Under the pieces are notes generated by a model. It had not been told where the DNA came from. It did no database searches and saw only the letters and a program-made list of their open reading frames with translations. Below are positions 1 through 14,981 of a stretch of DNA of 14,981 nucleotides, in pieces. Every line of letters starts with the position of its first letter. Positions within the stretch are counted from its first letter, which is position 1. The DNA comes from a virus. Its lineage: Duplodnaviria; Heunggongvirae; Uroviricota; Caudoviricetes. The position numbers were made by a program, and so were the translations under genes. The stretch lies in IMG/VR virus record IMGVR_UViG_2606217106_000010, positions 1-14,981 of that record; one strand, 5' to 3'.

Positions 1-472
1 TACGTCACTTAAAAAACTCAGGCCGCAGTCGGTAACCTCGCGCATACAGCCGGGCAGTGACGTCATCGTCTGCGCGGAAATGGACGAACAGTGGGGCTAT
101 GTCGGGGCTAAATCGCGCCAGCGCTGGCTGTTTTACGCGTATGACAGGCTCCGGAAGACGGTTGTTGCGCACGTATTCGGTGAACGCACTATGGCGACGC
201 TGGGGCGTCTTATGAGCCTGCTGTCACCCTTTGACGTGGTGATATGGATGACGGATGGCTGGCCGCTGTATGAATCCCGCCTGAAGGGAAAGCTGCACGT
301 AATCAGCAAGCGATATACGCAGCGAATTGAGCGGCATAACCTGAATCTGAGGCAGCACCTGGCACGGCTGGGACGGAAGTCGCTGTCGTTCTCAAAATCG
401 GTGGAGCTGCATGACAAAGTCATCGGGCATTATCTGAACATAAAACACTATCAATAAGTTGGAGTCATTACC
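1..472 (+). mobile_element. IS1 insertion sequence, right-hand ~470 bp; the rest lies left of the window
   Basis: Sequence ends with the characteristic IS1 terminus ...CAATAAGTTGGAGTCATTACC at 451-472, and the internal ORF is InsB. The element is cut by the window edge, so its completeness cannot be judged. Confidence 0.9.
2..457 (+). CDS. insB: IS1 transposase InsB, C-terminal portion (5' partial at window edge)
   Basis: The frame is open from nt 2 and translates ...[48 protein letters not shown]...[15 protein letters not shown], matching IS1 InsB as I recall it. The provided ORF 80..457 is the internal-Met part of this frame. Confidence 0.9.
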
Positions 473-516
473 GGAAGCTAATTCTGATATTAGCGATCCC
501 ATGTATTATTGGTTTT

Positions 517-1887
517 ATGCCAGCTCCGGCAGGATTAAGCGAACTGGCGTGGGTGCTTTTTGGTATTTACCTGGCGGCCATTGTGGGGCTGGTTATCAAG
601 CCTTTCCCGGAACCTGTCGTACTGTTAATTGCCGTTGCTGCCTCAATGGTGGTGGTCGGTAACTTATCCGACGGTGCGTTTAAAACCACCGCCGTATTAA
701 GCGGTTACTCTTCAGGTACCACCTGGCTGGTGTTCTCGGCGTTTACCTTAAGCGCCGCATTTGTGACCACCGGTTTAGGTAAACGTATTGCCTATCTGCT
801 GATTGGTAAAATCGGTAACACCACGCTGGGTCTGGGTTACGTTACGGTATTCCTCGATCTGGTACTGGCTCCGGCAACACCGTCTAACACCGCGCGTGCG
901 GGCGGCATTGTGTTACCGATCATCAACAGCGTGGCGGTGGCTTTGGGGTCCGAACCGGAAAAAAGTCCGCGTCGTGTCGGACATTACCTGATGATGTCCA
1001 TTTACATGGTCACCAAAACCACCAGCTATATGTTCTTTACCGCAATGGCGGGGAACATTCTGGCGCTGAAAATGATCAACGACATTCTGCACCTGCAAAT
1101 TAGCTGGGGTGGATGGGCGCTGGCAGCCGGATTGCCGGGCATCATTATGCTGCTGGTCACCCCGCTGGTGATTTACACCATGTATCCACCAGAAATTAAG
1201 AAGGTGGATAACAAAACCATCGCTAAAGCGGGCCTTGCCGAACTAGGACCGATGAAAATCCGCGAAAAAATGCTGCTCGGTGTCTTTGTGCTGGCGCTGC
1301 TGGGCTGGATTTTCAGTAAGTCTCTGGGGGTTGATGAATCCACCGTGGCAATCGTTGTTATGGCAACCATGCTGCTGCTGGGTATCGTTACCTGGGAAGA
1401 CGTGGTTAAAAATAAAGGCGGCTGGAATACCTTAATCTGGTACGGCGGTATTATCGGCTTAAGCTCCTTATTATCGAAAGTTAAATTCTTCGAATGGTTA
1501 GCTGAAGTCTTTAAAAATAACCTGGCATTTGATGGTCACGGTAACGTTGCTTTCTTCGTTATTATTTTCCTCAGCATTATCGTGCGTTATTTCTTCGCTT
1601 CCGGTAGTGCCTATATCGTTGCTATGTTACCGGTATTTGCCATGCTGGCGAACGTCTCCGGCGCACCGTTAATGTTAACCGCGCTGGCACTGTTGTTCTC
1701 CAACTCCTATGGCGGCATGGTTACTCACTATGGCGGCGCGGCAGGTCCGGTCATCTTTGGCGTGGGTTATAACGATATTAAATCCTGGTGGTTGGTCGGT
1801 GCGGTACTGACGATATTAACCTTCCTGGTGCATATCACCCTCGGCGTGTGGTGGTGGAATATGCTGATCGGCTGGAACATGCTGTAA
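517..1887 (+). CDS. ybhI: DASS-family (divalent anion:Na+ symporter-like) inner-membrane transporter YbhI; the N-terminus may be truncated by the upstream IS1
   Basis: 456-aa ORF, highly hydrophobic with many predicted TM segments, matching E. coli YbhI in sequence and in its position before ybhJ/ybhC. No ATG/GTG/TTG exists in frame between the upstream stop (412-414) and 517. The in-frame upstream codons 472-516 encode a hydrophobic stretch (RKLILILAIPCIIGF) that looks like coding sequence running into the IS1 end. Confidence 0.85.
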   Translation: MPAPAGLSELAWVLFGIYLAAIVGLVIKPFPEPVVLLIAVAASMVVVGNLSDGAFKTTAVLSGYSSGTTWLVFSAFTLSAAFVTTGLGKRIAYLLIGKIGNTTLGLGYVTVFLDLVLAPATPSNTARAGGIVLPIINSVAVALGSEPEKSPRRVGHYLMMSIYMVTKTTSYMFFTAMAGNILALKMINDILHLQISWGGWALAAGLPGIIMLLVTPLVIYTMYPPEIKKVDNKTIAKAGLAELGPMKIREKMLLGVFVLALLGWIFSKSLGVDESTVAIVVMATMLLLGIVTWEDVVKNKGGWNTLIWYGGIIGLSSLLSKVKFFEWLAEVFKNNLAFDGHGNVAFFVIIFLSIIVRYFFASGSAYIVAMLPVFAMLANVSGAPLMLTALALLFSNSYGGMVTHYGGAAGPVIFGVGYNDIKSWWLVGAVLTILTFLVHITLGVWWWNMLIGWNML

Positions 1888-2069
1888 ATATTCTCGTCAT
1901 ACTTCAAGTTGCATGTGCTGCGTCTGCGTTCGCTCACCCCAGTCACTTACTTATGTAAGCTCCTGGGGATTCACTCGCTTGTCGCCTTCCTGCAACTCGA
2001 ATTATTTAGAGTATATCCATTTATTATCTTTCTGCGCACTTCACGGTGCGCAGATATCTGGAGCATTTG

Positions 2070-4331
2070 ATGATCAAGTTATCTGAAAAAGGCGTGTTTC
2101 TCGCCAGTAATAACGAAATAATTGCCGAAGAACATTTCACCGGCGAAATTAAAAAAGAAGAAGCCAAAAAAGGCACTATTGCCTGGTCTATTCTCTCTTC
2201 GCATAATACGTCCGGAAATATGGATAAACTTAAAATTAAGTTTGATTCATTAGCCTCTCACGATATTACCTTTGTTGGTATTGTACAGACCGCTAAAGCG
2301 TCCGGTATGGAACGTTTCCCGCTGCCGTATGTGCTGACCAACTGCCATAACTCACTCTGCGCCGTCGGCGGCACTATTAACGGTGATGACCATGTTTTTG
2401 GTTTATCGGCGGCCCAGCGTTATGGCGGTATTTTTGTGCCTCCGCATATTGCGGTCATCCATCAATATATGCGTGAGATGATGGCAGGCGGCGGCAAAAT
2501 GATCCTCGGGTCAGACAGCCACACCCGTTACGGTGCATTAGGGACAATGGCAGTCGGTGAGGGCGGCGGTGAGTTGGTAAAACAGCTGCTTAATGACACC
2601 TGGGATATCGACTATCCGGGCGTGGTTGCGGTGCATCTGACCGGAAAACCTGCGCCGTATGTGGGGCCACAGGATGTGGCGCTGGCTATCATTGGCGCGG
2701 TGTTCAAAAACGGTTACGTCAAAAACAAAGTCATGGAGTTCGTTGGACCGGGCGTTAGCGCGCTCTCTACCGATTTCCGTAACAGCGTTGACGTGATGAC
2801 CACTGAAACGACCTGTTTAAGTTCTGTCTGGCAAACCGATGAAGAAGTCCATAACTGGCTGGCGCTGCACGGTCGCGGCCAGGATTACTGCCAGCTTAAC
2901 CCTCAACCGATGGCGTACTACGATGGCTGCATCAGCGTTGATTTAAGCGCCATCAAACCAATGATTGCGCTGCCGTTCCACCCGAGCAACGTGTATGAAA
3001 TCGACACACTGAACCAGAACCTGACCGACATTCTGCGTGAGATTGAAATTGAGTCCGAACGCGTGGCGCACGGTAAAGCCAAACTCTCGCTGCTGGATAA
3101 AGTGGAAAATGGTCGCCTGAAAGTGCAGCAGGGGATTATCGCGGGCTGTTCTGGCGGTAACTACGAAAACGTCATCGCGGCGGCGAATGCACTGCGCGGT
3201 CAATCCTGTGGCAATGACACCTTCTCGCTGGCAGTTTACCCGTCATCACAGCCGGTGTTTATGGATCTCGCCAAAAAAGGTGTGGTAGCAGATTTGATTG
3301 GCGCAGGCGCAATCATCAGAACCGCGTTCTGCGGCCCATGCTTTGGCGCGGGCGATACGCCAATCAACAACGGTTTGAGTATTCGCCACACCACGCGTAA
3401 CTTCCCGAACCGCGAAGGCTCTAAGCCAGCTAATGGGCAGATGTCAGCGGTGGCGTTGATGGACGCTCGTTCTATCGCTGCGACTGCGGCAAACGGTGGC
3501 TATTTAACCTCTGCCAGCGAACTTGATTGCTGGGACAACGTGCCGGAGTACGCCTTCGATGTAACGCCGTATAAAAACCGTGTTTATCAGGGCTTTGTGA
3601 AAGGGGCAACTCAGCAACCGCTGATTTACGGGCCGAACATTAAAGACTGGCCGGAATTGGGTGCGCTGACTGACAATATCGTCCTGAAAGTGTGCTCGAA
3701 GATCCTCGACGAAGTGACCACCACCGACGAACTGATTCCTTCCGGTGAAACCTCTTCTTATCGTTCAAATCCGATTGGTCTGGCGGAGTTTACCCTGTCT
3801 CGCCGCGATCCCGGTTATGTTAGCAGAAGTAAAGCGACTGCTGAGCTGGAAAATCAGCGTCTGGCGGGGAATGTCAGCGAGCTGACAGAGGTGTTTGCGC
3901 GCATTAAGCAGATTGCTGGTCAGGAGCATATTGATCCGCTGCAAACTGAAATTGGCAGCATGGTCTATGCGGTGAAACCAGGCGATGGTTCTGCGCGTGA
4001 ACAGGCGGCGAGCTGCCAGCGTGTGATTGGCGGTCTGGCGAATATTGCCGAGGAGTACGCGACTAAACGCTATCGTTCTAACGTCATCAACTGGGGGATG
4101 TTACCGCTGCAAATGGCGGAAGTACCAACCTTTGAAGTGGGGGATTACATTTACATCCCTGGCATTAAAGCGGCGCTGGATAATCCGGGTACGACGTTTA
4201 AAGGTTATGTGATCCATGAAGATGCGCCGGTAACGGAAATTACGCTCTATATGGAAAGTCTGACTGCTGAAGAGCGCGAGATTATCAAGGCGGGTAGTTT
4301 GATTAACTTCAATAAAAACCGTCAGATGTAA
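2070..4331 (+). CDS. ybhJ: Aconitase-family protein YbhJ
   Basis: The provided ORF starts at GTG 2046, but the in-frame ATG at 2070 ([11 protein letters not shown]...) gives 753 aa, the length I recall for E. coli YbhJ. The protein has aconitase-like glycine-rich and Cys-containing regions and the expected position between ybhI and ybhC. Confidence 0.88.
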
Positions 4332-4344
4332 AAAGCGCCATGTG

Positions 4345-4552
<208 letters not shown>

Positions 4553-4564
4553 AGTTAATTGCTC

Positions 4565-5848
4565 TTACTTCTTCGCCTCTGCAACCACTTTACTACCCAC
4601 GCCGCGGTTATTGTATTCCCACATGCGGTTGTAGTTAGTGTCATTCAGATTGCGCTGTATTTCGTCGTTATCATCTACGCTGCCGGTATTACCCGCAAAC
4701 GGACGATTAGAGATCACCGCATCGGCCCACGGTTTAGCCGTGTTAAAACCTTCGTTGATGGCGCTATCACGGATCACCACCTGACCGTTGGTATTGGCAT
4801 CAACATCCAGCGAGCGGCCCAGTTGCGCCACACCATCACCGAAAGCATTGAAACGGCTGTTTACGGCGAGGAAACCGTAGTAAATGTTGGACAGCGTAGC
4901 CGGTGCAAACACATACGCTTCTTGCTGAGTACGTGAGTTCACCACGCGGAATTCGGTGTTATCGAACACCACTGCGCCGCGACCAGAAACGATATCCACA
5001 TCCCCTTCAATGTAGCTGTTGGTCACCAGCGTACGCGGCTGACGATTTGTTTCCAGACGGTTCTGCACACCGCTGTTGGTGACAAAGAAGGTGTTCTGAC
5101 GACCGAGAATGTTAACGTTGTTAATCTGTACCTGGTCACCATCAGTACGCAGTGCCACCGCCGGATGGTTACCTGCATCTACGCTATCGCCCAGCGTGTT
5201 TTCGATGGTCAGATTTTGCAGTTGCAGGCCATTGTTTTGTGACCAGAAGACCGCAGAGCAGAGAACACCGATACTGTCGCTGCGTTTGCTCTGGCAGCTA
5301 TCGTACATATACCACGCTGGTTTACCTGGCATATATTTGCCGCGCGGGTTGACGTCGTGACGCCAGTCGGCAGGGCTCATGCCACCATCAAGGGAAAGCC
5401 CAATCTTCACATCAATCGGTTTTTCACCTGTACCGTACAGAGTAATTCCACCCGGAGCGGCAGGGACATATACCGTTCCCTGATACTCACCAGGCATCAC
5501 GGCAATATACTGGCGCTTGTTGGTACGCTTGATAATTGCCGCATCTACCGCCGCCTGAATCGTGGTATGCGTTACACCTTGAGTGCCCGCCGGGCCGACA
5601 ACAAAGTCAGGTTGCGCAGGCAGGGTAATCGGGGAAGGATTCCACGCTGCAGCACCTGGTGTCAGGGATGCAAAATAGTGTTGAGCATCGAAATTCTGCG
5701 CTTCTTTTGCCGACAGAATCGGGCGAGAAGAGGTACCAGGCGCGGTTTGATCAGAAGGACGTTGATCGGGCGGGGTTGAGCTACAGGCGGTCAGCGTCAC
5801 GCCAAAAGCCAATGCCAGCGCCAGACGGGAAACTGAAAATGTGTTCAC
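4565..5848 (-). CDS. ybhC: Outer-membrane lipoprotein YbhC (pectinesterase-family fold; putative acyl-CoA thioesterase)
   Basis: 427-aa ORF with a lipoprotein signal peptide and lipobox (MNTFSVSRLALALAFGVTLTAC...). It is the last host gene before attB-lambda in E. coli, and its length matches YbhC. Confidence 0.9.
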   Translation of the reverse strand: MNTFSVSRLALALAFGVTLTACSSTPPDQRPSDQTAPGTSSRPILSAKEAQNFDAQHYFASLTPGAAAWNPSPITLPAQPDFVVGPAGTQGVTHTTIQAAVDAAIIKRTNKRQYIAVMPGEYQGTVYVPAAPGGITLYGTGEKPIDVKIGLSLDGGMSPADWRHDVNPRGKYMPGKPAWYMYDSCQSKRSDSIGVLCSAVFWSQNNGLQLQNLTIENTLGDSVDAGNHPAVALRTDGDQVQINNVNILGRQNTFFVTNSGVQNRLETNRQPRTLVTNSYIEGDVDIVSGRGAVVFDNTEFRVVNSRTQQEAYVFAPATLSNIYYGFLAVNSRFNAFGDGVAQLGRSLDVDANTNGQVVIRDSAINEGFNTAKPWADAVISNRPFAGNTGSVDDNDEIQRNLNDTNYNRMWEYNNRGVGSKVVAEAKK

Positions 5849-5879
5849 AGGTTGCTCCGGGCTATGAAATAGAAAAATG

Positions 5880-5982
5880 AATCCGTTGAAGCCTGCTTTT
5901 TTATACTAAGTTGGCATTATAAAAAAGCATTGCTTATCAATTTGTTGCAACGAACAGGTCACTATCAGTCAAAATAAAATCA
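5880..5982. other. Lambda-type attL (bacterial arm, 15-bp common core, phage P-prime arm with Int arm-type and IHF sites)
   Basis: Core GCTTTTTTATACTAA at 5895-5909 is preceded by host sequence TGAAGCCT and followed by GTTGGCATTATAAAAAAGCATTGCTTATCAATTTGTTGCAACGAACAGGTCACTATCAGTCAAAATAAAATCATTATTTGATTTCAATTTTGTCCCACTCCC, which is the lambda attP P-prime arm as I recall it. Confidence 0.92.
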
Positions 5983-7053
5983 TTATTTGATTTCAATTTT
6001 GTCCCACTCCCTGCCTCTGTCATCACGATACTGTGATGCCATGGTGTCCGACTTATGCCCGAGAAGATGTTGAGCAAATTTATCGCTTATCTGCTTCTCA
6101 TAGAGTCTTGCAGACAAACTGCGCAACTCGTGAAAGGTTGGCGGATCCCCTTCGAAGGAGAGACCTGATGCTTTTCGTGCGCGCATAAAATACCTTGATA
6201 CTGTGCCGGATGAAAGCGGTTCACGACGAGTAGATGCAATTATGGTTTCTCCGCCAAGAATCTTTTTGCATTTATCAAGTGTTTCCTTCATTGATATCCC
6301 GAGAGCATCAACATGCAATGTTGTTGGGATGGCAATTTTTACGCCTGTTTTGCTTTGCTCGACATAAAGATATCCATCTACGATATCAGACCACTTCATT
6401 TCGCATAAATCACCAACTCGCTGCCCGGTAACAACAGCCAGTTCCATTGCAAGTCTAAGCCAACATGGTGATGATTCTGCTGCTTGATAAATTTTCAGGT
6501 ATTCGTCAGCCGTAAGTCTTGATCTCCTTACCTCTGATTTTGCAGCGCGAGTGGCTGCGACCGGGTTTGTTGTTATATGGCCTTCAGCCATAGCCTCTCG
6601 GAATGCATCGCTCAGTGTTGATCTGATTAACTTGGCTGATGCCGCCTTTCCCTCGTCTATGTATCCATTGAGCATTGCCGCAATTTCTTTTGTGGTGATG
6701 TCTTCAAGTGGAGCATCAGGCAGACCCCTCCTTATTGCTTTAATTTTGCTCATGTAATTTATGAGTGTCTTCTGCTTGATTCCTCTGCTGGCCAGGATTT
6801 TTTCGTAGCGATCAAGCCATGAATGTAACGTAACGGAATTATCACTGTTGATTCTCGCTGTCAGAGGCTTGTGTTTGTGTCCTGAAAATAACTCAATGTT
6901 GGCCTGTATAGCTTCAGTGATTGCGATTCGCCTGTCTCGGCCTAATCCAAACTCTTTACCCGTCCTTGGGTCCCTGTAGCAGTAATATCCATTGTTTCTT
7001 ATATAAAGGTTAGGGGGTAAATCCCGGCGCTCATGACTTCGCCTTCTTCCCAT
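5983..7053 (-). CDS. int: Phage lambda-type integrase (tyrosine recombinase)
   Basis: 356-aa ORF MGRRRSHERRDLPPNLYIRNNGYYCYRDPRTGKEF...HLLGHKSDTMASQYRDDRGREWDKIEIK, near-identical to lambda Int by recollection. It sits directly against the P-prime arm of attL, as in a lambda lysogen. Confidence 0.96.
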   Translation of the reverse strand: MGRRRSHERRDLPPNLYIRNNGYYCYRDPRTGKEFGLGRDRRIAITEAIQANIELFSGHKHKPLTARINSDNSVTLHSWLDRYEKILASRGIKQKTLINYMSKIKAIRRGLPDAPLEDITTKEIAAMLNGYIDEGKAASAKLIRSTLSDAFREAMAEGHITTNPVAATRAAKSEVRRSRLTADEYLKIYQAAESSPCWLRLAMELAVVTGQRVGDLCEMKWSDIVDGYLYVEQSKTGVKIAIPTTLHVDALGISMKETLDKCKKILGGETIIASTRREPLSSGTVSRYFMRARKASGLSFEGDPPTFHELRSLSARLYEKQISDKFAQHLLGHKSDTMASQYRDDRGREWDKIEIK

Positions 7054-7145
7054 TTCTGATCCTCTTCAAAAGGCTACCTGTTACTGGTCGATTTAAGTCA
7101 ACCTTTACCGCTGATTCGTGGAACAGATATTCTCTTCCATCCTTA
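7031..7145 (-). pseudogene. xis: xis remnant: only the C-terminal ~37 codons of lambda-type excisionase remain
   Basis: The reverse strand encodes ...KDGREYLFHESAVKVDLNRPVTGSLLKRIRNGKKAKS* and overlaps the int start as in lambda. Lambda-like sequence ends near 7145/7146, with no upstream xis start codon or N-terminal coding sequence. Confidence 0.75.
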
Positions 7146-7155
7146 TATAACCAGG

Positions 7156-7336
7156 TGAATCATTTGATACCGACAAGGGTTTTAGTGAAAGGAGGTGAAA
7201 TCACCTGTAAGATACTGAAATAAAACAGGTGATGGCTAGATGTGCGGATAAGGTCTATTTGATACCGATTGTGCAATAATTAGTCATTTATTATAAAATC
7301 GGCAACTCATTTGATACTGTGGTTTTAGTCTTTTAA
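7156..7336 (+). repeat. Putative left end (attL) of a Mu-like transposable prophage with three direct transposase-binding-site-like repeats
   Basis: CATTTGATACCG at 7161-7172, TATTTGATACCG at 7256-7267 and CATTTGATACTG at 7308-7319 are direct repeats; repeats 1 and 3 are each followed by GGTTTTAGT. Spacing of ~95 and ~52 bp resembles Mu L1-L2-L3. A candidate terminal 5'-TG lies at 7156-7157. Confidence 0.55.
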
Positions 7337-7377
7337 GGCGTTCCAAACAATGCGAAATACTCGATATAGTGCAAAAT

Positions 7378-7406
7378 GCGGGCTAATGCTATTAACCCGC
7401 TTTTGG
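7378..7406 (-). terminator. Possible hairpin terminator overlapping the 3' end of the repressor gene
   Basis: GCGGG (7378-7382) and CCCGC (7396-7400) form a 5-bp stem with a 13-nt loop, flanked by a T/A-rich run on either strand. The stem is short. Confidence 0.3.
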
Positions 7407-7937
7407 TTCTACCGCGTTAGATTTGCGACTTCTCTCAGTTTCTTCCAAAATCTCTCTGACGCGTTCGTCAGACATACCTTCAAGCTGTAATGCAGCTATT
7501 CTTTTCCTTCCTTCTAAGCGGATTAGATCTTGATTTTCAGGCTCTAACAACCGAGCTAAGTACTTGGCTCCATTCAGAACCAAATTTTTCGATAGCTGCT
7601 CTAAGTCTTTTTCATCAAGTGCGCTGATAATCGTCATAATTATCTTCTTGCTTTCATCTTGATTTTCCTTGATCTCACAACGATTCACTTGTGATGCATC
7701 ACTGAATCCACATAGCCACTCAACACTTACTCCTTCGATAGACGCAATCTGAAGGGCGACACTTAAGGATGGCTCAGTGCCACGAGACAGATAATTGTTT
7801 AGTGTTGAAAATGAAAGCCCCCAATCTCTTGCTGCAGCTCTGACGCTGCGGGAGCCAATCAGCCTTTTCAGACGCTCAGCAATGCTTTCTTTTCTACCAC
7901 CAGGAAAAGAAAGAGATGTTGTTGTTTGCTTGTTCAT
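7392..7937 (-). CDS. Prophage repressor with Cro/CI-type HTH, in the position and orientation of Mu c
   Basis: 181-aa ORF divergent from ner. The N-terminal region (IAERLKRLIGSRSVRAAARDWGLSFSTLNNYLSRGTEPSLSVALQIASIEGVSVEWL) has the pattern of an XRE/CI-family HTH. There is no obvious S24 peptidase domain. Confidence 0.7.
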   Translation of the reverse strand: MNKQTTTSLSFPGGRKESIAERLKRLIGSRSVRAAARDWGLSFSTLNNYLSRGTEPSLSVALQIASIEGVSVEWLCGFSDASQVNRCEIKENQDESKKIIMTIISALDEKDLEQLSKNLVLNGAKYLARLLEPENQDLIRLEGRKRIAALQLEGMSDERVREILEETERSRKSNAVEPKAG

Positions 7938-8121
7938 TTTCTTTTCTTCCTATCAATTTGAAATTATTAACTTTTAGTGTTGTCAGCAACCATTGATCCA
8001 CAATAGACAAAAGAAAGATGTTTTTTTGCTTTACATGAAGCAGAAGTGGATCAATACTTATATCAAATTTGATAACTAAGTTTAGTTATCAAATTTCGTA
8101 ACTTTTTAGGATAGATGAATC
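7938..8121. promoter_or_regulatory. Divergent promoter/operator region between the repressor and ner
   Basis: AT-rich 184-bp intergenic region containing a 14-bp perfect palindrome TATCAAATTTGATA (8061-8074), a further half-site copy TTATCAAATTT (8086-8096), and a 10-bp inverted repeat ATTGATCCAC (7993-8002) / GTGGATCAAT (8046-8055). Confidence 0.5.
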
Positions 8122-8352
8122 ATGGCGAGAAATGAAGTTAAGCCTGATTGGCATCCTCAAAGAATTTTGGGGGAAGTCAGAGCCAGAGAAGGAAGCATGA
8201 GGGCGCTGGCCCGTAAAGCTGGCGTGGGTCAGAACAATCTGTACAACGCGGTATACCGCCATGTTCCCAAGTATGAGGGGATTATCGCGGAATGCCTGGG
8301 GGTGCCGCCCGAGGAGATTTGGCCCAGCCGCTACATTCGTAAGGTCGCGTAA
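8122..8352 (+). CDS. ner: Ner-like DNA-binding protein (Mu Ner / Nlp family)
   Basis: 76-aa ORF containing the motif EEIWPSRY (cf. Mu Ner ...PEVIWPSRY) and a KPDWHPQRILG N-terminus resembling Mu Ner. It is the first gene of the rightward operon and sits immediately before the transposase gene. Confidence 0.85.
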   Translation: MARNEVKPDWHPQRILGEVRAREGSMRALARKAGVGQNNLYNAVYRHVPKYEGIIAECLGVPPEEIWPSRYIRKVA

Positions 8353-8354
8353 TT

Positions 8355-10442
8355 ATGTTTGCTTCAGTCAAAGAACTGGTTGGATTACCGGGGATGCCGG
8401 GAACGGAGCAAGGCGTTCGCTATTCAATCAGGAAGTATGCAACCAGCGAAACCAGCAGACGCCGCAAGAAAGGCGCTAAAGGTTTTGAATACAGCATTGA
8501 CTGTTTACCTGAAGTGACACAGCAGGCATTACGCGAACGTTATGCCCTGCAACTGATGACGCAAAAAGCCGATGAATCACCGGCTCCGGTGGTGACAAAG
8601 GCCAGACGCTCGTCTGCCGTGGTTGATGCGGTGGAGGCATATCGCGGATCACCACAACTGATGGTCGAACGCCTCAATGCCCTGACTGAAAACCAGCGCC
8701 AGGTGGCAGACGCACGCATTGCGATCGTCAGTGAGGTGCTGAAATTCACGCAACAACCCGGTTTCAGCTGCGCTAAAGCTATCCGGTTCATCGTTGACCG
8801 CCTGTCACACTCGCAACTGGATGAGCGCATTGTGGCAATGGTTGAGATAGCGAACGCCAGAAAGGGAAACAGTCGCGTGTTGAGTGAAATCACGCTGAAA
8901 CGCTGGATTGCGGCCTTTAATAAGGCACAGAACGCTGCTGAACGCCTGCTTTTGCTGGCACCAGGTAAACGCCAGGAAATAAAAGCCGAAGATATTAACT
9001 GGTTGCCCGAATTTCTGGCGCAGTATCGCCAGTCAAACGGCCGACCAATGACCGAGGCTTACGAGGATTTTGTTGCCGAATGGCAGCACCGGCACGCTGA
9101 TGAGCCTTATATGCTCGATATCATGCCGTCTTATGACACCATTCGCCGCGCAATGAAGAAACTGCCGGAAGTGGTGAAACAAAAAGGACGGGTTACCGGC
9201 AGTGAATACCGCCAGCTTGAGGGATTCACGCGCCGCGACTGGTCAAAAATGCCGGTGAATTATGTCTGGATTGGTGACGGTCACGGCATGAAGCTGAAAT
9301 GCGCGCACCCGGTTCACGGGCGGCCATTCGCACCGGAAGTGACCTTTGTTATCGACGGTGGCACGCGCTTTGTGGTGGGCTGGAGCCTTGACCTGGCTGA
9401 AAATGTTTTCGCCGTAGCCGGTGCCATACAGCACGGTATTCGCCATCATGGCAAACCGTTTCTGTATTACTCGGATAATGGCTCCGGGGAAACCGCCGAC
9501 GTCCTGGATAAGGAGATTGTGGGGATACTGCCACGACTGGGGATTAATCACCCGACAGGGATTGCCGGTAATCCGCAGGGACGGGGCATTATCGAACGGC
9601 TTAACCGCACATTACCGATGCGCATAGCCCGTAAATACCGCACCTATTTCGGGAAAGGAGCAGATCGCGAGACGTTACGTAAAACCAACCGCGATTTACG
9701 CTCGGCATTCAGTGCCCTGCAACAGGGCAAACGGCTGAACGCCCGGCAGCAGTCAGCGATGCGTGATTTACCGTCCTGGTCTGAACTGATTGATGCCATT
9801 CGTGACGGTGTTGAGTGGTACAACAACCGGCCGCACGATGAATTACCCATGAAGCCGAACGGTAAACATTACAGCCCGGCGGAGTTCAGAAAAAAACGCC
9901 TGGCGGAAGAGGACACGGAAATTGAATGGCTGTCCGATGTTGAACTGCGGGATATGTTCCGGCCGATGGTGGAGCGCCCTGTAAGACGCTGTGAAATACG
10001 CTGGCTGAATAATATTTACTACGCGCCCGAGCTGCGTGACGAGCATGGCCGTAAGGTACTTATCAGCTATGACATTCATGATGCCGAACGAATTACCGTG
10101 CGCCGCCCGGATGGCAGCGTGATTTGCGAGGCGGTATGGGACGGCAATAAACGCGAAGCCTTCCCTGTCAGCGCGGAATACTACAAACAGCAGCAGCGCC
10201 TTAAAGGCATGCGTAAACGCGCAGAGGAAAAAATCCGTGATGCCGAGGATGAGGTTGTCAACGTGCTGGAGCACAAGCCGCAGGAGCCCTGGCTGGAAAA
10301 CATATACCGCCCTGTGGGTAATACGGTGACCGTTCAGCAACCGGTCGCTGACGATGAACCTGATGAAGAATACGAGCGTAATTTCCAGCGGGGATTGCAA
10401 CTGCTCGAAGCGAAATTAAAAGAAAGTGATCCGCTGGCCTGA
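8355..10442 (+). CDS. MuA-family DDE transposase (transposable-phage transposase A)
   Basis: 695-aa ORF. Its N-terminus resembles the MuA enhancer-binding domain (cf. Mu MELWVSPKECANLPGLPKTSAGV...GVKGGKAIEY versus here ...GLPGMPGTEQGV...GAKGFEYS). The catalytic-core region VWIGDGHGMK...ILGWSLDLAEN parallels Mu WINGDGY...ILGWRCDVSEN. It is followed by a B-like gene. Confidence 0.92.
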   Translation: MFASVKELVGLPGMPGTEQGVRYSIRKYATSETSRRRKKGAKGFEYSIDCLPEVTQQALRERYALQLMTQKADESPAPVVTKARRSSAVVDAVEAYRGSPQLMVERLNALTENQRQVADARIAIVSEVLKFTQQPGFSCAKAIRFIVDRLSHSQLDERIVAMVEIANARKGNSRVLSEITLKRWIAAFNKAQNAAERLLLLAPGKRQEIKAEDINWLPEFLAQYRQSNGRPMTEAYEDFVAEWQHRHADEPYMLDIMPSYDTIRRAMKKLPEVVKQKGRVTGSEYRQLEGFTRRDWSKMPVNYVWIGDGHGMKLKCAHPVHGRPFAPEVTFVIDGGTRFVVGWSLDLAENVFAVAGAIQHGIRHHGKPFLYYSDNGSGETADVLDKEIVGILPRLGINHPTGIAGNPQGRGIIERLNRTLPMRIARKYRTYFGKGADRETLRKTNRDLRSAFSALQQGKRLNARQQSAMRDLPSWSELIDAIRDGVEWYNNRPHDELPMKPNGKHYSPAEFRKKRLAEEDTEIEWLSDVELRDMFRPMVERPVRRCEIRWLNNIYYAPELRDEHGRKVLISYDIHDAERITVRRPDGSVICEAVWDGNKREAFPVSAEYYKQQQRLKGMRKRAEEKIRDAEDEVVNVLEHKPQEPWLENIYRPVGNTVTVQQPVADDEPDEEYERNFQRGLQLLEAKLKESDPLA

Positions 10443-10524
10443 AATAAAAAAATAACCCGAGGGGTGACTCAGGTTATTTGAGGTTTCAGTCTCGGAGAAT
10501 GCTGTCTCAAGCGAGGTGAATAAT

Positions 10525-11457
10525 ATGACCGATATTAACGATGTAATCAAGACCATTGATGAACTTATTGATGGCGGCGTACTGACGCAGTATGCCATCG
10601 CCAGAGAGGCGGGAATTTCCGACGGCACATTATCGGCTTTCCGTAAGGGAAAATATAAAGGCGATAACGCTGCTGTGGCTGCTTCCCTGCGCTCCTGGTA
10701 TGAGAACTGGAATAAACAAAGCGCACTGCCGGAACCGCCGCAGTTTGTGGAAACTCAGACAGTCCAGGAGCTGCGCGCACTGTTTCAGGCGGTTCGCCTG
10801 ATGGGCTGTATTAACGTTATTGTGGGCGTACCGGGTGTGGGTAAAACGGCCACTGCCCGTAATTACTGCCAGGAGCAACCAAACACCTGGATGATCACCC
10901 TGTCACCCGCGCACTCCAGCGTCACGGAGTGTCTGCTGGAGCTGGCCGATGCGCTGGGGATTGATTACACCCGCGCGAACAAAGGGGCATTATCCCGCGC
11001 CATCCGCCGTCGCCTGATGGGAACGCGTGGACTGGTGATTGTGGATGAGGCGGATCATCTTGGTATTGACGGTCTGGAGCAACTCCGGGCAATTCAGGAC
11101 GCCACGGGGATCGGGATGGTGCTTATTGGTAACCCGCGCGGATTGTTTAAAGGTGGACGCCGCGCCTTTGATGATTTATCGCGCCTGTTCAGCCGTCTTG
11201 CCCGTACAAAACAACTTCGCAAGGCCAAAAAGGCGGATGTGCTGGCCATTGCCAGGGCATGGGGTATCAGTGGTGAGGCCGAGCTGGCCGTCATGCAGGC
11301 TATCGCTGAAAAGCCGGGAGCGTTACGCGTTCTGACACATACGCTTAACCAGGCGTGGCTCACCGCCAGCGGTGAAGGCGCGGCGCTGACAGAAAAACAT
11401 ATTAATGCGGCCTTTAAAGAGGTTTATACCAACCCTGAATTACTCTCACAGGTGTGA
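10525..11457 (+). CDS. MuB-family AAA+ ATPase / target DNA activator
   Basis: The provided ORF starts at GTG 10516; the ATG at 10525 with a GAGGTG RBS upstream is the more likely start. Walker A VGVPGVGKT and Walker B LVIVDEADHL are present. Strong resemblance to Mu B (PEPPRFVETQTV..., QKPGALR...). Confidence 0.9.
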   Translation: MTDINDVIKTIDELIDGGVLTQYAIAREAGISDGTLSAFRKGKYKGDNAAVAASLRSWYENWNKQSALPEPPQFVETQTVQELRALFQAVRLMGCINVIVGVPGVGKTATARNYCQEQPNTWMITLSPAHSSVTECLLELADALGIDYTRANKGALSRAIRRRLMGTRGLVIVDEADHLGIDGLEQLRAIQDATGIGMVLIGNPRGLFKGGRRAFDDLSRLFSRLARTKQLRKAKKADVLAIARAWGISGEAELAVMQAIAEKPGALRVLTHTLNQAWLTASGEGAALTEKHINAAFKEVYTNPELLSQV

Positions 11458-11459
11458 TT

Positions 11460-11681
11460 ATGGTGATATTTAATATTCCTGATATTTACGGACGCTTTCA
11501 CCTGGTGAATTTCGATAACGTCAAAGCAGTCTCCGTGTCTGACAGTGAAGAATGTGGCGATTTACTTTTTGAATTTAATGATCGCACCAGAATGGCAATA
11601 TCGGCAGGACTTGATCGTGAAGGTGCGAAAGAAGCTTACAGCAATATTTGTCGTTTTATCGGTGCAAAACGAATCAGCTAA
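11460..11681 (+). CDS. Hypothetical small early protein (positional equivalent of Mu kil)
   Basis: 73-aa ORF starting at an ATG that overlaps the end of the B gene (a GTG at 11454 is an alternative start). It has the same orientation as the early operon. No recognisable motif. Confidence 0.5.
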   Translation: MVIFNIPDIYGRFHLVNFDNVKAVSVSDSEECGDLLFEFNDRTRMAISAGLDREGAKEAYSNICRFIGAKRIS

Positions 11682-11693
11682 ACGAGGTGTTAT

Positions 11694-11948
11694 ATGAATA
11701 TGCAATCCTGCGGTAACAAAATGAATTTATTCGACTCCCTGAACAGCGCGCGCCGTCTGACCGAACTTGCCGGTGCGGTACTGGAACGCAGTAAGCGCTA
11801 CCCACAACGTTTTGCACTGAAAACCACGCCGCCGGTAGGCAACGTGCAGGGAACCGGTGAAATTGAAATCACCATACAGACCAACGGCCTGCGCCGCCGT
11901 GTGAAGGCCACCCGCATAAGCGGATGCACGGTTTACTGGGAGGTGTGA
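11694..11948 (+). CDS. Hypothetical early-region protein
   Basis: 84-aa ORF with a GAGGTG RBS 5 nt upstream, tightly packed in the operon. Function unknown. Confidence 0.5.
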   Translation: MNMQSCGNKMNLFDSLNSARRLTELAGAVLERSKRYPQRFALKTTPPVGNVQGTGEIEITIQTNGLRRRVKATRISGCTVYWEV

Positions 11949-11949
11949 G

Positions 11950-12231
11950 ATGAAACGAAATCTGATTGCGTGGGCGTGGTCGAGCGGTCTCATTGAGTTT
12001 GGTTACGTCCTGCCGGAAGGTGCATTGCCGATAGTTGCCGGAAAGCCTGCCACAGTACGGCATGTGATTGAGGTTATGGCGCGTCATGGACGTGATGAAC
12101 AGGAGCAGTTACTGGTTCCGGGGATACCGGAAGCGGTGACGGAGGAAGAAGCCTTTAATGCCATGATTCGGTTCTGCCGTGAGGTCAGACGCCGGGTCAG
12201 TTATCCAAACAGAACGAGGACCAGAGGATGA
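11950..12231 (+). CDS. Hypothetical early-region protein
   Basis: 93-aa ORF with a GGAGGTG RBS. It starts 2 nt after the previous stop and overlaps the next start (ATGA). Function unknown. Confidence 0.55.
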   Translation: MKRNLIAWAWSSGLIEFGYVLPEGALPIVAGKPATVRHVIEVMARHGRDEQEQLLVPGIPEAVTEEEAFNAMIRFCREVRRRVSYPNRTRTRG

Positions 12232-12500
12232 GTAAAGTTGTACGCATTATTTTCGAATACAAGGAGCACGTTATCCATAAAAACGCTGATGAAACAGTGC
12301 ACATGGGGGTAAGTCTGGGCATACGTTCAACCGGGATAAAGCAGAAAGGTGATGGACCCGCCATGATTTTTGGGGTGGTTATGCTCGCGGAAAGCAGAGA
12401 CTTTGCTGAACTTGTGGCAATGAAAGCCAGAGCGCTCATGAAAGATATGAACATGAGTTCCGGGGTTATTAAAGGTAATGAATTTAATCAGCAGGGGTAA
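12228..12500 (+). CDS. Hypothetical early-region protein, paralog A (N-terminus MSKVVRIIFEYKEHV)
   Basis: 90-aa ORF whose start overlaps the upstream stop (ATGA). Its N-terminus is shared with the next ORF. Confidence 0.55.
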   Translation: MSKVVRIIFEYKEHVIHKNADETVHMGVSLGIRSTGIKQKGDGPAMIFGVVMLAESRDFAELVAMKARALMKDMNMSSGVIKGNEFNQQG

Positions 12501-12504
12501 TTCC

Positions 12505-12798
12505 ATGAGCAAAGTACGCGTTATTTTTGAATTTGAGCATGTTTCGCATGACGAAAAGCTGGCAGGCAATGACTGTGTTGAAGTGCATGAAAAGATTGGT
12601 GTGGATGTGAAAACAGAACGTGATACGGAGAACAGCCCGACGTCACTCTGTGATGTTTATGCAAGTATTCTCCAGTATCACAGTCCTGCAATTATTCATT
12701 TCCTCTCAGCGGAATTTCAGGCATCTGCACAGGATTTTGGAGCGGATGCCATCATTAAACGCCACCGCGTGCATAAAGCATCAGGCACACTGCAATAA
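12505..12798 (+). CDS. Hypothetical early-region protein, paralog B (N-terminus MSKVRVIFEFEHV)
   Basis: The provided ORF starts at 12478; the ATG at 12505 has a better RBS (AGGGG) and gives the N-terminus MSKVRVIFEFEHVSH, which parallels the preceding gene. Confidence 0.55.
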   Translation: MSKVRVIFEFEHVSHDEKLAGNDCVEVHEKIGVDVKTERDTENSPTSLCDVYASILQYHSPAIIHFLSAEFQASAQDFGADAIIKRHRVHKASGTLQ

Positions 12799-12809
12799 GG
12801 AAAAACAAA

Positions 12810-13340
12810 ATGGCTAAACGCGTTACAAAATTAAAGGCCGCAGCCGAGGCCGCACCACAGACCCGCGAAGAAGTCAGCCGCGATATCCGACGCTTTGGGG
12901 ATATGCAGCGTGAGGCGCTGCGCCTGGAAACAGCGATGAATGACGAAGTGGCAGAAATTACCGCCCGTTATACGCCGCAGATTGAAAACCTTAAAAAAGA
13001 AATCAAAGTGCTTTTTAAAGGGATTCAGGACTGGTGTAAAACCAACCGCAATGAGCTGACGAACGGCGGTGAAACCAAAACAGCCAATCTGACCACCGGA
13101 ACGGTGTCATGGCGGCTGGGAACGCCATCATGCAGCGTCAGCCGTGATGTGGAAGGCGTGATTGAAATGCTGCGCCGTATGGGCCTTGAGCGCTTCATCC
13201 GCACGAAAGAGGAAGTGAATAAGCAAGCTGTCCTGGCGGAGCCGGATGCGGTGAAAGACATTGCCGGTATTAAGGTGAATAAAGGCGCTGAAAGTTTTTA
13301 TGTCGAGCCTTTTGAACAGGACGCCGGACTGAACAAATAA
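12810..13340 (+). CDS. gam: Gam-like host-nuclease inhibitor / DNA-end-binding protein (Mu Gam family)
   Basis: 176-aa ORF resembling Mu Gam along its length by recollection: LQREALRLETAMNDEVAEITARY..., NRNELTNGGETKTANLTTGTVSWR..., RFIRTKEEVNKQAVLAEP..., PFEQDAG. Confidence 0.88.
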   Translation: MAKRVTKLKAAAEAAPQTREEVSRDIRRFGDMQREALRLETAMNDEVAEITARYTPQIENLKKEIKVLFKGIQDWCKTNRNELTNGGETKTANLTTGTVSWRLGTPSCSVSRDVEGVIEMLRRMGLERFIRTKEEVNKQAVLAEPDAVKDIAGIKVNKGAESFYVEPFEQDAGLNK

Positions 13341-13437
13341 CACCGCATTAAATCTTTAAATATCACTTCATTTTAATTATGGCGCTCGCGTCAGGGGACT
13401 GCCTGCGCCTGTAAACTGAAAATAAGGAACAGGAAAT

Positions 13438-13980
13438 ATGGCATATTTTTATTTCAAATTAGACTGTGTGCAGACAAATAAATATTTCACCAAATATCAA
13501 CAGACTGTTTTACCGCTACGCAACAGTATTCTTCGGGCGTTACTGAAAAATACAGGCGCTACCGGATTGCGCTTAAAGCCGTTCGCCATGGACGTAATCA
13601 GTGAGTTTTATTTTTCCGGTGCTCTGCCTGCGGGCTGGTGTAAGCGCGATGATGTGGCTTTTATCGGTGGTGGACAGTGCTTTATAGCCAGACCTGATGA
13701 GTCATGCCCTGAAGGAGCGGCGATTGCCGCAATGATTGAAGCCGCTGAACGCGAGTTAAGAAAGCGTCCTGATTTCCTTGTCTGGCTCTGTGAAAAGCTG
13801 GGGGTAATGAGAATCCCCTCCATGTTTAACACAGACTCCTGGTGGACCCCGTCTCTCTCCCGTGATGCCCTGTGCGTGGTGTTTAAAGTAGGTGCTTATG
13901 GCAGGGAAATAAACGGGCGTATTCCTGAAGAATGTCAGGAAATTAAACATTCTGAATATGTGGCGCTGACGGAGGAATAA
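13438..13980 (+). CDS. Hypothetical protein (late part of Mu-like early region)
   Basis: 180-aa ORF with an AAGGA RBS, preceded by a 97-bp AT-rich gap after gam. No recognisable motif; it contains several Cys residues without a clear zinc-finger spacing. Confidence 0.55.
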   Translation: MAYFYFKLDCVQTNKYFTKYQQTVLPLRNSILRALLKNTGATGLRLKPFAMDVISEFYFSGALPAGWCKRDDVAFIGGGQCFIARPDESCPEGAAIAAMIEAAERELRKRPDFLVWLCEKLGVMRIPSMFNTDSWWTPSLSRDALCVVFKVGAYGREINGRIPEECQEIKHSEYVALTEE

Positions 13981-13983
13981 TTC

Positions 13984-14517
13984 ATGATAGATGCAAAAGT
14001 GCTTGAAGGGGTTAAAAACTGGCTGAGCATTTACGGGCGTCTGACCTGCGGCGTTCTGGCTCAAAGAATGAATATGCCGCCATCCTCGATGGTCTATTTT
14101 CTGCGTGATGCGGTTGATGCCGGTGTGCTGACAGAATGTAACGGTTTTTATGATATTCCGCGTCCCCGCCCGGTACAGCCGGTTCGTCGCAAATGCCGCC
14201 AGGAGTCTGTGGCTGATGATGTTCAGTGGTGCAGCTTCAGAAAATCCCTGCCGTGGGTTGAAGGGCATGATATTCCGTCGATGGCGTGGGAATTTGCGCA
14301 GGGCGTTCTGACCTGTGAAACCGTTTATGTGGTGGCTGAAGTTGATGAGCAGGCAATGAAAGAAGGTGTGCCCCAGTTTGTGATGGCGTATATCGACATT
14401 CGCCTGGGGACCATTATCTGCGGTTTAAGCGGCTGGAATATCACCGAACATGTTCTGCGTTACCTGATTGTTGACCGGACGGCAGCGCCTGCCGGGATAT
14501 CTGCGGAGGTGGCGTAA
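13984..14517 (+). CDS. Hypothetical protein, possibly with an N-terminal winged-helix-like domain
   Basis: 177-aa ORF with a GGAGGA RBS, starting 3 nt after the previous stop. Residues ~15-50 (IYGRLTCGVLAQRMNMPPSSMVYFLRDAVDAGVL) resemble a winged-HTH pattern; this is inference only. Confidence 0.5.
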   Translation: MIDAKVLEGVKNWLSIYGRLTCGVLAQRMNMPPSSMVYFLRDAVDAGVLTECNGFYDIPRPRPVQPVRRKCRQESVADDVQWCSFRKSLPWVEGHDIPSMAWEFAQGVLTCETVYVVAEVDEQAMKEGVPQFVMAYIDIRLGTIICGLSGWNITEHVLRYLIVDRTAAPAGISAEVA

Positions 14518-14979
14518 TGTTCTTTAAAACATCGAACCCTTCCGCGCTGGCTGCGTGGCAAAAATATCAGCAGGACTGCCAGCAAGTTAAGGATGAGGCA
14601 AAACGCCTTGAGGCCGTGCTGAATGTTGAGTGCCGGTCGGTATTTGTATCCGGTATCAGCGGTTTTTGTTTTAAGGGGCTGCGTTTTACGAATGACAAAT
14701 ATCCTTTTCATCGTGATTTATGGCGAAAACCGACTGCGTCGAATGGCTGGAGCTGCACGCCGCGCACATCGCGCATTCCCAAAGCCCTGCGCACTGCCTC
14801 TGACGAACTGAACAGTCTGTGGCGTGAATATTCGCCCGTCACGTATGCCAGAACCGATGCCCTGTTGTTCTGGCTGGGCATTGATTTCTCAGCAATCCTG
14901 TATGGCCCTGTGGAGTGGTTCTGCGTTGACGATGTGATTTATCTTCAGTGCGGTGTAAAACCCGCAAATCAGAAAATGA
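14518..14979 (+). CDS. Hypothetical protein, 3' partial (runs off window end)
   Basis: An ATG at 14518 immediately follows the previous stop (TAATG). The frame stays open for 154 codons to the window edge (MFFKTSNPSALAAWQKYQQDCQQVKDEAKRLEAVL...). It is absent from the supplied ORF list, probably because it has no stop codon within the window. Confidence 0.45.
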
Positions 14980-14981
14980 CC

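Follow-up and report, generated by a model that had tools for sequence, protein, structure and literature searches.

A predicted, conserved hairpin between gam and homologues of Mu gp11 and gp12 in a Mu-like prophage

Layout of the gap and the three reading frames

The window, i.e., the whole stretch of 14,981 nucleotides (nt) at positions 1 to 14,981 of IMG/VR virus record IMGVR_UViG_2606217106_000010, ends within the early operon of a Mu-like prophage, and the subject of this analysis is the gap that follows gam together with the three open reading frames (ORF1, ORF2 and ORF3) between this gap and the end of the window (Table 1). The final gene of the conserved block preceding the gap is gam, which stops with TAA at 13338-13340. 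An earlier note on this DNA had described the gap as AT-rich and 97 base pairs (bp) long and the ORFs as tightly packed frames of 180, 177 and at least 154 amino acids. The length of the gap and the layout of the ORFs were as described, whereas "AT-rich" fits only the two arms of the gap, between which lies a GC-rich hairpin, and ORF3 comprises 155 codons in the window. The GC content of the gap as a whole was 41% versus 50% for the window. The remaining early-operon spacings within the window ranged from -23 to +12 nt, which leaves the gap after gam as the largest; the sole other sizeable early-operon gap in the window lies between A and B (10443-10515, 73 nt).

Table 1. Positions of the early genes of the Mu-like prophage and of the parts of the gap after gam, in map order.
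Feature	Position	Strand	Description
Repressor-like gene	7392-7937	-	Mu-like prophage
ner	8122-8352		Mu-like prophage
Transposase A gene	8355-10442		Mu-like prophage
B gene	10516-11457		Mu-like prophage
Five small early ORFs	between B gene and gam		
gam	12810-13340	+	Mu Gam / Ku-like DNA-end-binding protein; Pfam Phage_Mu_Gam, 2.6e-40
Gap	13341-13437		97 bp, gam to ORF1
AT-rich 5' arm	13341-13380	+	40 nt, 22.5% GC; conserved TTTTAATTAT at its end
GC-rich hairpin (predicted)	13381-13409	+	29 nt, 79% GC, -14.3 kcal/mol
AT-rich 3' arm	13410-13437	+	28 nt, 28.6% GC; ORF1 ribosome-binding site AAGGA
ORF1	13438-13980	+	180 amino acids; divergent DUF5420 relative (phrog_2260)
ORF2	13984-14517	+	177 amino acids; Mu gp11 homologue
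ORF3	14517-14981	+	first 155 of 171 codons; Mu gp12 homologue

All three ORFs are judged to be real genes under purifying selection, ORF1 being the least constrained, because the ratios of nonsynonymous to synonymous substitution rates (dN/dS) among natural alleles were 0.34-0.36 for ORF1, 0.16 for ORF2 and 0.20 for ORF3 (compared with 0.09 for gam and 0.06-0.10 for B), because each ORF is preceded by a Shine-Dalgarno sequence (AAGGA, GGAGGA and GGAGG, respectively) and because the genes are tightly coupled. The spacer between ORF1 and ORF2 is 3 nt, and the stop codon of ORF2 and the start codon of ORF3 share one base (TAATG). ORF3 leaves the window at its end and lacks its final 16 codons there.

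Conservation and covariation of the hairpin

The hairpin, GGCGC-UC-GCGUC-AGGG-GAC-U-GC-CU-GCGCC, has approximately 12 pairs with internal mismatches. The gap was 76.5% identical to that of Mu, and in comparisons with Mu, SfMu and Yersinia phage vB_YpM_23, all of which were chosen through their proteins and not through the motif, identities were 74-76% for the gap and 80-87% for the hairpin core, as opposed to 48-51% for the third codon positions of gam and gp11 in the same comparisons. The sequence TTTTAATTAT was conserved in these three phages, while the 3' arm varied with the identity of the gene following the hairpin.

Compensatory changes between the arms of the stem were noted in an alignment of 30 hairpin variants, a looser pattern scan of viral contigs having yielded 28 distinct ones. 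Among the first 18 variants, RNAalifold showed no covariation, the pattern used for collecting them having fixed the stem. In the alignment of 30, 85% of stem cells were paired, compared with 28-51% when the partners were slid. Pair 13-35 was U-A in 15 variants, C-G in 14 and U-G in one and was unpaired in none; pair 14-34 was A-U in 14 variants and G-C in seven; and inner pairs switched as well (G-C/C-G/G-U and U-A/G-C/U-G). Cells with a double change numbered 27, compared with 10.1 +/- 4.3 after shuffling, and none of 500 shuffles reached 27. From the compensatory changes and the conservation above the neutral level, the gap is read as a conserved, structured element of RNA type rather than a spacer. 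Comparison of the gap with Rfam 15 at E <= 10 returned chance matches only, far under the gathering scores.

Other readings of the same nucleotides were considered. Masking of the ribosome-binding site by the AT-rich 5' arm was dismissed since, across 20 gap types, the pairing probability was not above that obtained with shuffled 5' arms. A mini-ORF starting at a conserved ATGGCG (11 codons here) is shifted out of frame between classes by a 1-nt indel; it also stops after two codons in the Klebsiella type and has no Shine-Dalgarno site, and was rejected as coding. As for a CsrA site, Mu alone has GGA in its loop, where GGGG or CGGG is usual among the variants. The conserved AGGG loop suggests specific recognition.

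Distribution of the hairpin

A covariance model built from the hairpin variants gave a single strong match in the window (13373-13414, 58.7 bits, E 2e-12) and a single strong match in the whole Mu genome (6360-6402, with the hairpin at 6368-6396). One strong match each was also obtained in Yersinia phage vB_YpM_23, Klebsiella phage ST405-OXA48phi1.1 and Pseudomonas phage VW-6B. The element always lies upstream of gemA-mor and after a conserved block, which is either A, B and the genes through gam or DUF3164. In DUF3164-type phages it lies behind DUF3164, from which it is separated by at most two small ORFs, and ahead of variable cargo. The distance from the hairpin to the next start codon was 15-28 nt in most variants.

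In a pattern scan of one genome per species, matches were essentially those expected by chance in GC-rich genomes. The lone enterobacterial match, in Erwinia (L197), was discarded, as it has neither an AT-rich arm nor gam or a related gene in its vicinity. Unrelated GC-rich hairpins were noted in the gap after gam in PhiKM (positions 4011-4110 of locus L209) and in Pasteurella phage AFS-2018a (positions 3020-3096 of locus L211); ACGTCAG and an AT-rich lead-in are common to the PhiKM gap and that of Mu. Hairpins in this position may be more widespread than the modelled motif.

Relationships of ORF1, ORF2 and ORF3

The earlier note had recognized no motif in the three proteins and had regarded clear homology to known Mu early proteins as contrary to its account; such homology was found for ORF2 and ORF3. 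ORF2 was identical to Mu gp11 at 119 of 177 residues (67%, 5e-82) over the whole length with one gap, and its residues 90-167 matched positions 1-78 of the 78-position Pfam profile PF25754 (Gp11_C, "Phage Mu Gp11 C-terminal domain") at 139.9 bits (E 3.4e-41; cut-off, 27 bits). Its position downstream of gam is in agreement with the synteny of Mu and SfMu. By these comparisons ORF2 is assigned to the Mu Gp11 family. The protein can be divided into a winged-helix-like N-terminus (approximately residues 1-58), a variable Pro/Arg-rich linker and the Gp11_C domain; the winged-helix-like character of the N-terminal 50-60 amino acids comes from a low-confidence predicted model (overall predicted local distance difference test score, pLDDT, of 59.9). 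ORF2 probably binds nucleic acid. Four cysteines (C22, C52, C83 and C111), distributed across both domains, were invariant or nearly so in 29 gp11 homologues and could hint at a metal site.

ORF3 matched phrog_2314 (3.3e-74). Its full-length counterpart in the closest complete-genome relative (L002, 98.5% identical) has 171 amino acids and was 53% identical to Mu gp12 (1e-67). This counterpart is named "Mu-Gp12 family protein" by the Prokaryotic Genome Annotation Pipeline. The Pfam copy that was searched contained no model matching ORF3 or Mu gp12; database homologues of ORF3 carry PF26885. ORF3 is accordingly placed, from its sequence, in the Mu Gp12 family. Some phages of Klebsiella, Vibrio, Acinetobacter and Pseudomonas have genes resembling gp12 but lack gp11.

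ORF1 has no counterpart in Mu, in which gam is followed by a 98-bp gap and then by gp11. It was 40% identical (4e-43) to gp11 of SfMu, a "DUF5420 family protein" encoded at the same position. Against Pfam DUF5420 (PF17457), ORF1 scored 14 bits (E 0.045); because this lies below the gathering threshold of 26 bits, ORF1 is filed as a divergent DUF5420 relative and not as a member of the Pfam family. A profile search of 1.84 billion proteins gave 25 cluster representatives at E <= 0.001, and 18 of 27 aligned relatives from the ORF1 profile matched DUF5420 (best E 9e-28). No solved relative of the ORF1 fold was found, and a fold search of a viral library returned unnamed relatives only.

Alignment of the gp12 family with the ORF1/DUF5420 family by hhalign gave a probability of 86-87% (E 4e-6) over 154-159 columns, end to end. 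Control probabilities did not exceed 3.1% in 30 column shuffles and were 0.2% with unrelated alignments and 0.4% with the alignment reversed. ORF1 and ORF3 are thus probably remote paralogues with one fold.

In keeping with the earlier note, the genes remain functionally uncharacterized, in that their families are catalogued and none has a known function. Sequence searches of solved structures (PDB) with ORF1-3 and their profiles returned noise only (MIF, PnuC and others), NCBIfam contained no match to ORF1-3, and PADLOC-DB searched at E <= 1 contained none to ORF1, ORF2, full-length ORF3 or the SANT protein encoded downstream. On inspection of the family alignment by eye, no invariant polar residues pointing to catalysis were seen. 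Literature searches on Mu gp11/gp12, DUF5420, the old "arm" and "lig" functions and Mu transcriptomes yielded nothing on these genes, and the functions of semi-essential genes are largely unknown (PMC3820752, PMC8705779).

Variable genes after the hairpin

Among loci collected via the Gam protein or via the gap motif, gam and the gap element were constant and the gene following them varied. At least 24 loci had an ORF1 of the window type in the slot after the hairpin, and at least 14 had a third DUF5420-like allele, whose product was 28% identical to that of SfMu; others carried the SfMu-type allele or unrelated genes, and in still others the slot was empty and gp11 came directly. A polymorphic slot and an ORF1 that evolves faster would be in keeping with putative roles in host interaction or counter-defence.

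In prophages of the window lineage without ORF1 (L007 and relatives), a 14-codon ORF, MKYVYIVINNVVGK, was noted in the stretch that separates the hairpin from gp11, within 0-76 nt after the hairpin; it resembles a remnant left by deletion of a DUF5420-type gene. On a DUF3164-type contig (L235), two tandem DUF5420-like genes, 27-1157 nt after the hairpin, were followed by homologues of gp11 and gp12, so that the whole cassette moves between transposable phages of the Gam type and the DUF3164 type.

In L002, the genes after ORF3 were, in order, a SANT/Myb-like gene, four small ORFs, gemA (gp16 family), Mor and lysozyme. In agreement with the earlier note, ORF1-3 did not match Mor in Pfam or NCBIfam, and the Mor that it had proposed to seek further downstream was found approximately 3.2 kb past ORF3 in this prophage, outside the window, as a Mor-family gene annotated at 12893-13315. 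Recent work has tied Gam and GemA, the neighbours of the present genes, to host defence sensing (PMC12407980), which is mentioned here as context.

Prophage context

The end of a lambda-type prophage with attL, int and xis corresponds to positions 5894-7145 of the window, where identity to lambdoid phages was 99.8%, and this match breaks off at the Mu-like left end at approximately 7.15 kb. The arrangement is read as a Mu-like prophage nested within a lambda-type prophage. Shiga toxin (Stx)-converting phages hold the same Mu-like element at 93-94% identity, annotated as "inserted Bacteriophage Mu-like phage", and the region of the gap and ORF1-3 was present in 234 of 5426 complete E. coli genomes. 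Gam of the window was 55% identical to Mu Gam. Repeats resembling CATTTGATACCGA at approximately 7160-7320, within the Mu-like left end, are possible transposase sites.

Two of the small ORFs just before gam (12228-12500 and 12478-12798) resemble tandem paralogues; each carries MSKV(V)R(I)IFE[YF].. close to its start, and an internal Met is the probable start of the second. Two stretches of L002 (1213-3299 and 5791-8126) show a frameshifted transposase gene and an insertion of ISEc22, an element of the IS66 family, within the group of small early ORFs; that prophage copy is therefore defective. The only match above the gathering threshold in an Rfam search of the whole window was naRNA4 (CssrE, a nucleoid-associated RNA derived from a repetitive extragenic palindromic, REP, element), at 4426-4496 on the plus strand (60.7 bits) in the host part of the window.

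Discussion

The boundary that the earlier note had suspected at the gap is borne out, in that the gap divides a conserved replication/gam block from variable accessory cargo. The half of the early operon that begins here is variable and non-essential and corresponds to the "semi-essential early" region of a Mu-like prophage. In the interpretation that we favour, ORF1-3 would be read from the early promoter Pe within one long transcript and not from a promoter in the gap, and the hairpin would serve in this RNA to set processing or stability between cistrons. If an endonuclease cut within one of the AU-rich arms, the hairpin would remain as a protective end, and the amount of downstream accessory message would be uncoupled from that of the upstream A-B-gam message. 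The products of ORF1-3 would be accessory factors without enzymatic activity whose targets are nucleic acid or host proteins, ORF2 binding nucleic acid through a putative winged helix and ORF1 and ORF3 being binding proteins that modulate host functions or defences. Taken as a whole (the gene identities, the Pe transcript and the hairpin as an RNA processing or stability element), we hold this interpretation with a confidence slightly on the positive side of even. Scans of the region agree with it to the extent that no sigma-70 -35/-10 pair with a spacing of 16-18 bp was found in the gap; the only promoter-like site between 12700 and 14981 was at 14128-14157, i.e., one site where 2.3 were expected by chance. 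A terminator scan likewise found none in the gap, the hairpin being followed by UGUAAACUGA and not by a U run.

Several observations weigh against the interpretation of the hairpin as a processing or stability element upstream of accessory factors. The covariance model had no match in PhiKM, JBD93, Pasteurella phage AFS-2018a, SopranoGao or a Vibrio phage, nor in six DUF3164-type phages chosen through their protein; B3, WX_01, KS10, Burkholderia phage vB_E433 and Mannheimia phage 3927AP2 are among the transposable phages that lack the element. Since it is missing from transposable phages picked through proteins, the element is not a general requirement of such phages. Within the alignment, neither the outer four pairs nor the CAGGGG loop was free to vary, given the patterns used for collecting variants, and the variants fall in few clades, which may correspond to three to five independent covariation events. 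The folding energy of the gap, considered alone, was unexceptional (z = -1.08). With respect to the proteins, the searches of PDB, PADLOC and NCBIfam gave ORF1-3 no tie to a specific activity, and the predicted model of ORF2 was poor overall, as its pLDDT indicates. Finally, a promoter that is weak or depends on an activator may lie in the gap.

The internal promoter suggested in the earlier note would give the accessory genes a transcript of their own, perhaps a weak constitutive one in the lysogen. The size of the gap would suit such a promoter, the AT-rich tract with TTTTAATTAT contains AATTAT, which by eye matches the -10 hexamer at four of six positions, and a second promoter for the B gene of Mu (Pe*) was found only recently (PMC3820752), so that unmapped promoters are possible. 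This suggestion found no support in the sequence: no site in the gap reached nine matches of 12 in the scan, no -35 candidate seen by eye at a spacing of 16-18 bp exceeded two of six, and what is conserved is a hairpin with covarying arms. Moreover, the sequence upstream of the core is wholly different in L140 and L104, in which the core is kept, and a transcript starting approximately 7 nt past AATTAT would have its own 5' end within the 5' arm of the hairpin, which would make covariation of the stem pointless. An internal promoter is thus very unlikely. A transcriptional attenuator, i.e., a pause site or leaky factor-dependent terminator that reduces read-through into the accessory genes, would account for a stable GC-rich hairpin conserved with covariation at a boundary inside an operon, and the different hairpin after gam in the Pasteurella phage is followed by GUGUUUU. 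We nevertheless regard attenuation as improbable, given that a U run follows the hairpin in none of the 30 variants (the next bases being UGAAA, UGUAA or UAAAU), that the terminator scan was empty at the hairpin and that the downstream genes are under purifying selection and so must be expressed.

That the element acts as DNA, either as the site of a host or phage protein or as shared homology for the swapping of modules by recombination, is suggested by the change of the gene to its right while the element itself stays, as in lambdoid junction sequences, and by the loop CGTCAGGGG, which is conserved in sequence as well as in structure; in addition, several host proteins bind DNA, as ORF2 and the SANT/helix-turn-helix neighbour of ORF3 probably do. 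Recombination homology alone, however, fails to explain the compensatory changes between the arms and leaves unexplained a conservation above that of synonymous sites where Gam itself is only 55% identical, while the site of a dimeric protein normally conserves bases rather than covarying, and the element is kept in loci without gp11 (L097, L122 and L140). A role at the DNA level is therefore considered unlikely. A further alternative concerns the genes and not the hairpin: ORF1-3 may be expressed by the prophage to the benefit of the lysogen, for example by excluding other phages, instead of serving host takeover or counter-defence. Mu lysogens show low-level transcription from Pe through the semi-essential genes, and a benefit of it to the host has been proposed (PMC3820752); in addition, the slot is polymorphic, and the evolution of ORF1 is approximately four times faster than that of gam. 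Such a role nonetheless appears doubtful, as no match to defence protein models of PADLOC was obtained, no membrane or toxin features were seen in ORF1-3, and the genes lie inside a lytic early operon with no promoter consensus in the gap upstream.

A more specific proposal can be made, although we give it little credence. The hairpin would be a dedicated RNA switch, recognized by a host RNase or RNA-binding protein or by gp11 from just downstream, that gates a fast-changing cassette of effectors for counter-defence or host manipulation (the DUF5420/gp12 superfamily, gp11 and the SANT protein), mobile between Gam-type and DUF3164-type transposable phages that are otherwise unrelated.

As regards the genes, the present results replace a candidate new regulator with catalogued families, namely those of Mu gp11 and gp12 together with an extra gene of DUF5420 type, and place Mor further downstream. 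What is new is a conserved, covarying hairpin where the replication/gam block gives way to the accessory genes; it is found in Mu too and is absent from Rfam. If it acts as proposed, the hairpin would be an easily mutated handle on graded expression along an early transcript of roughly 9 kb. The gp12 family and DUF5420 apparently form one superfamily, which would halve the unknown folds in the region. The slot after the hairpin is a hotspot of presence/absence and allele replacement, a typical counter-defence setting, and as such is a sensible first target for functional screens. The hairpin, the link between gp12 and DUF5420 and the hotspot are of modest interest and directly testable, the rest of the region being ordinary.

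The closest known system is Mu itself, with which the window shares the order of genes after gam, a gap of nearly the same length (98 bp in Mu), the same hairpin and homologues of gp11 and gp12 that are colinear over their full length and belong to the same Pfam families (PF25754 and PF26885). The window differs from Mu in the extra gene of 180 amino acids between the hairpin and gp11, and in the SANT/Myb-like gene of its lineage, which was not found among Mu proteins by protein comparison. Since Mu gp11 and gp12 have no assigned function, homology to them yields a name and not a mechanism. ORF1 is instead most like gp11 of SfMu, a DUF5420 protein of the same length that is likewise encoded first after the gam hairpin and before the gp11 homologue, and the two have in common the motifs YFK.D, WLCE.LG and a C-terminal IKHSE[YF]VALTEE; ORF1 differs from DUF5420 in falling under the Pfam threshold and in that its own close family is small.

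For the hairpin, the nearest parallels are the intercistronic stem-loops that set differential mRNA stability, such as REP elements, the RNase E sites of papBA and T4 gene 32 and the RNase III sites of the T7 early region. Similarly, the predicted hairpin after gam is stable, has no U tract and separates cistrons of a long operon; its flanks are AU-rich and single-stranded, as preferred by RNase E, and the next ribosome-binding site lies a short distance downstream. In contrast with REP elements, it is single-copy and not dispersed; compared with typical RNase III substrates, it is shorter. A second parallel is found in mosaic lambdoid phages, which have conserved junction ("boundary") sequences at module borders. 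The gap element, like these, is a short conserved non-coding stretch where gene content switches, but it differs from them in that it covaries and in that it is common to phages with a differing flanking gene, i.e., gam or DUF3164.

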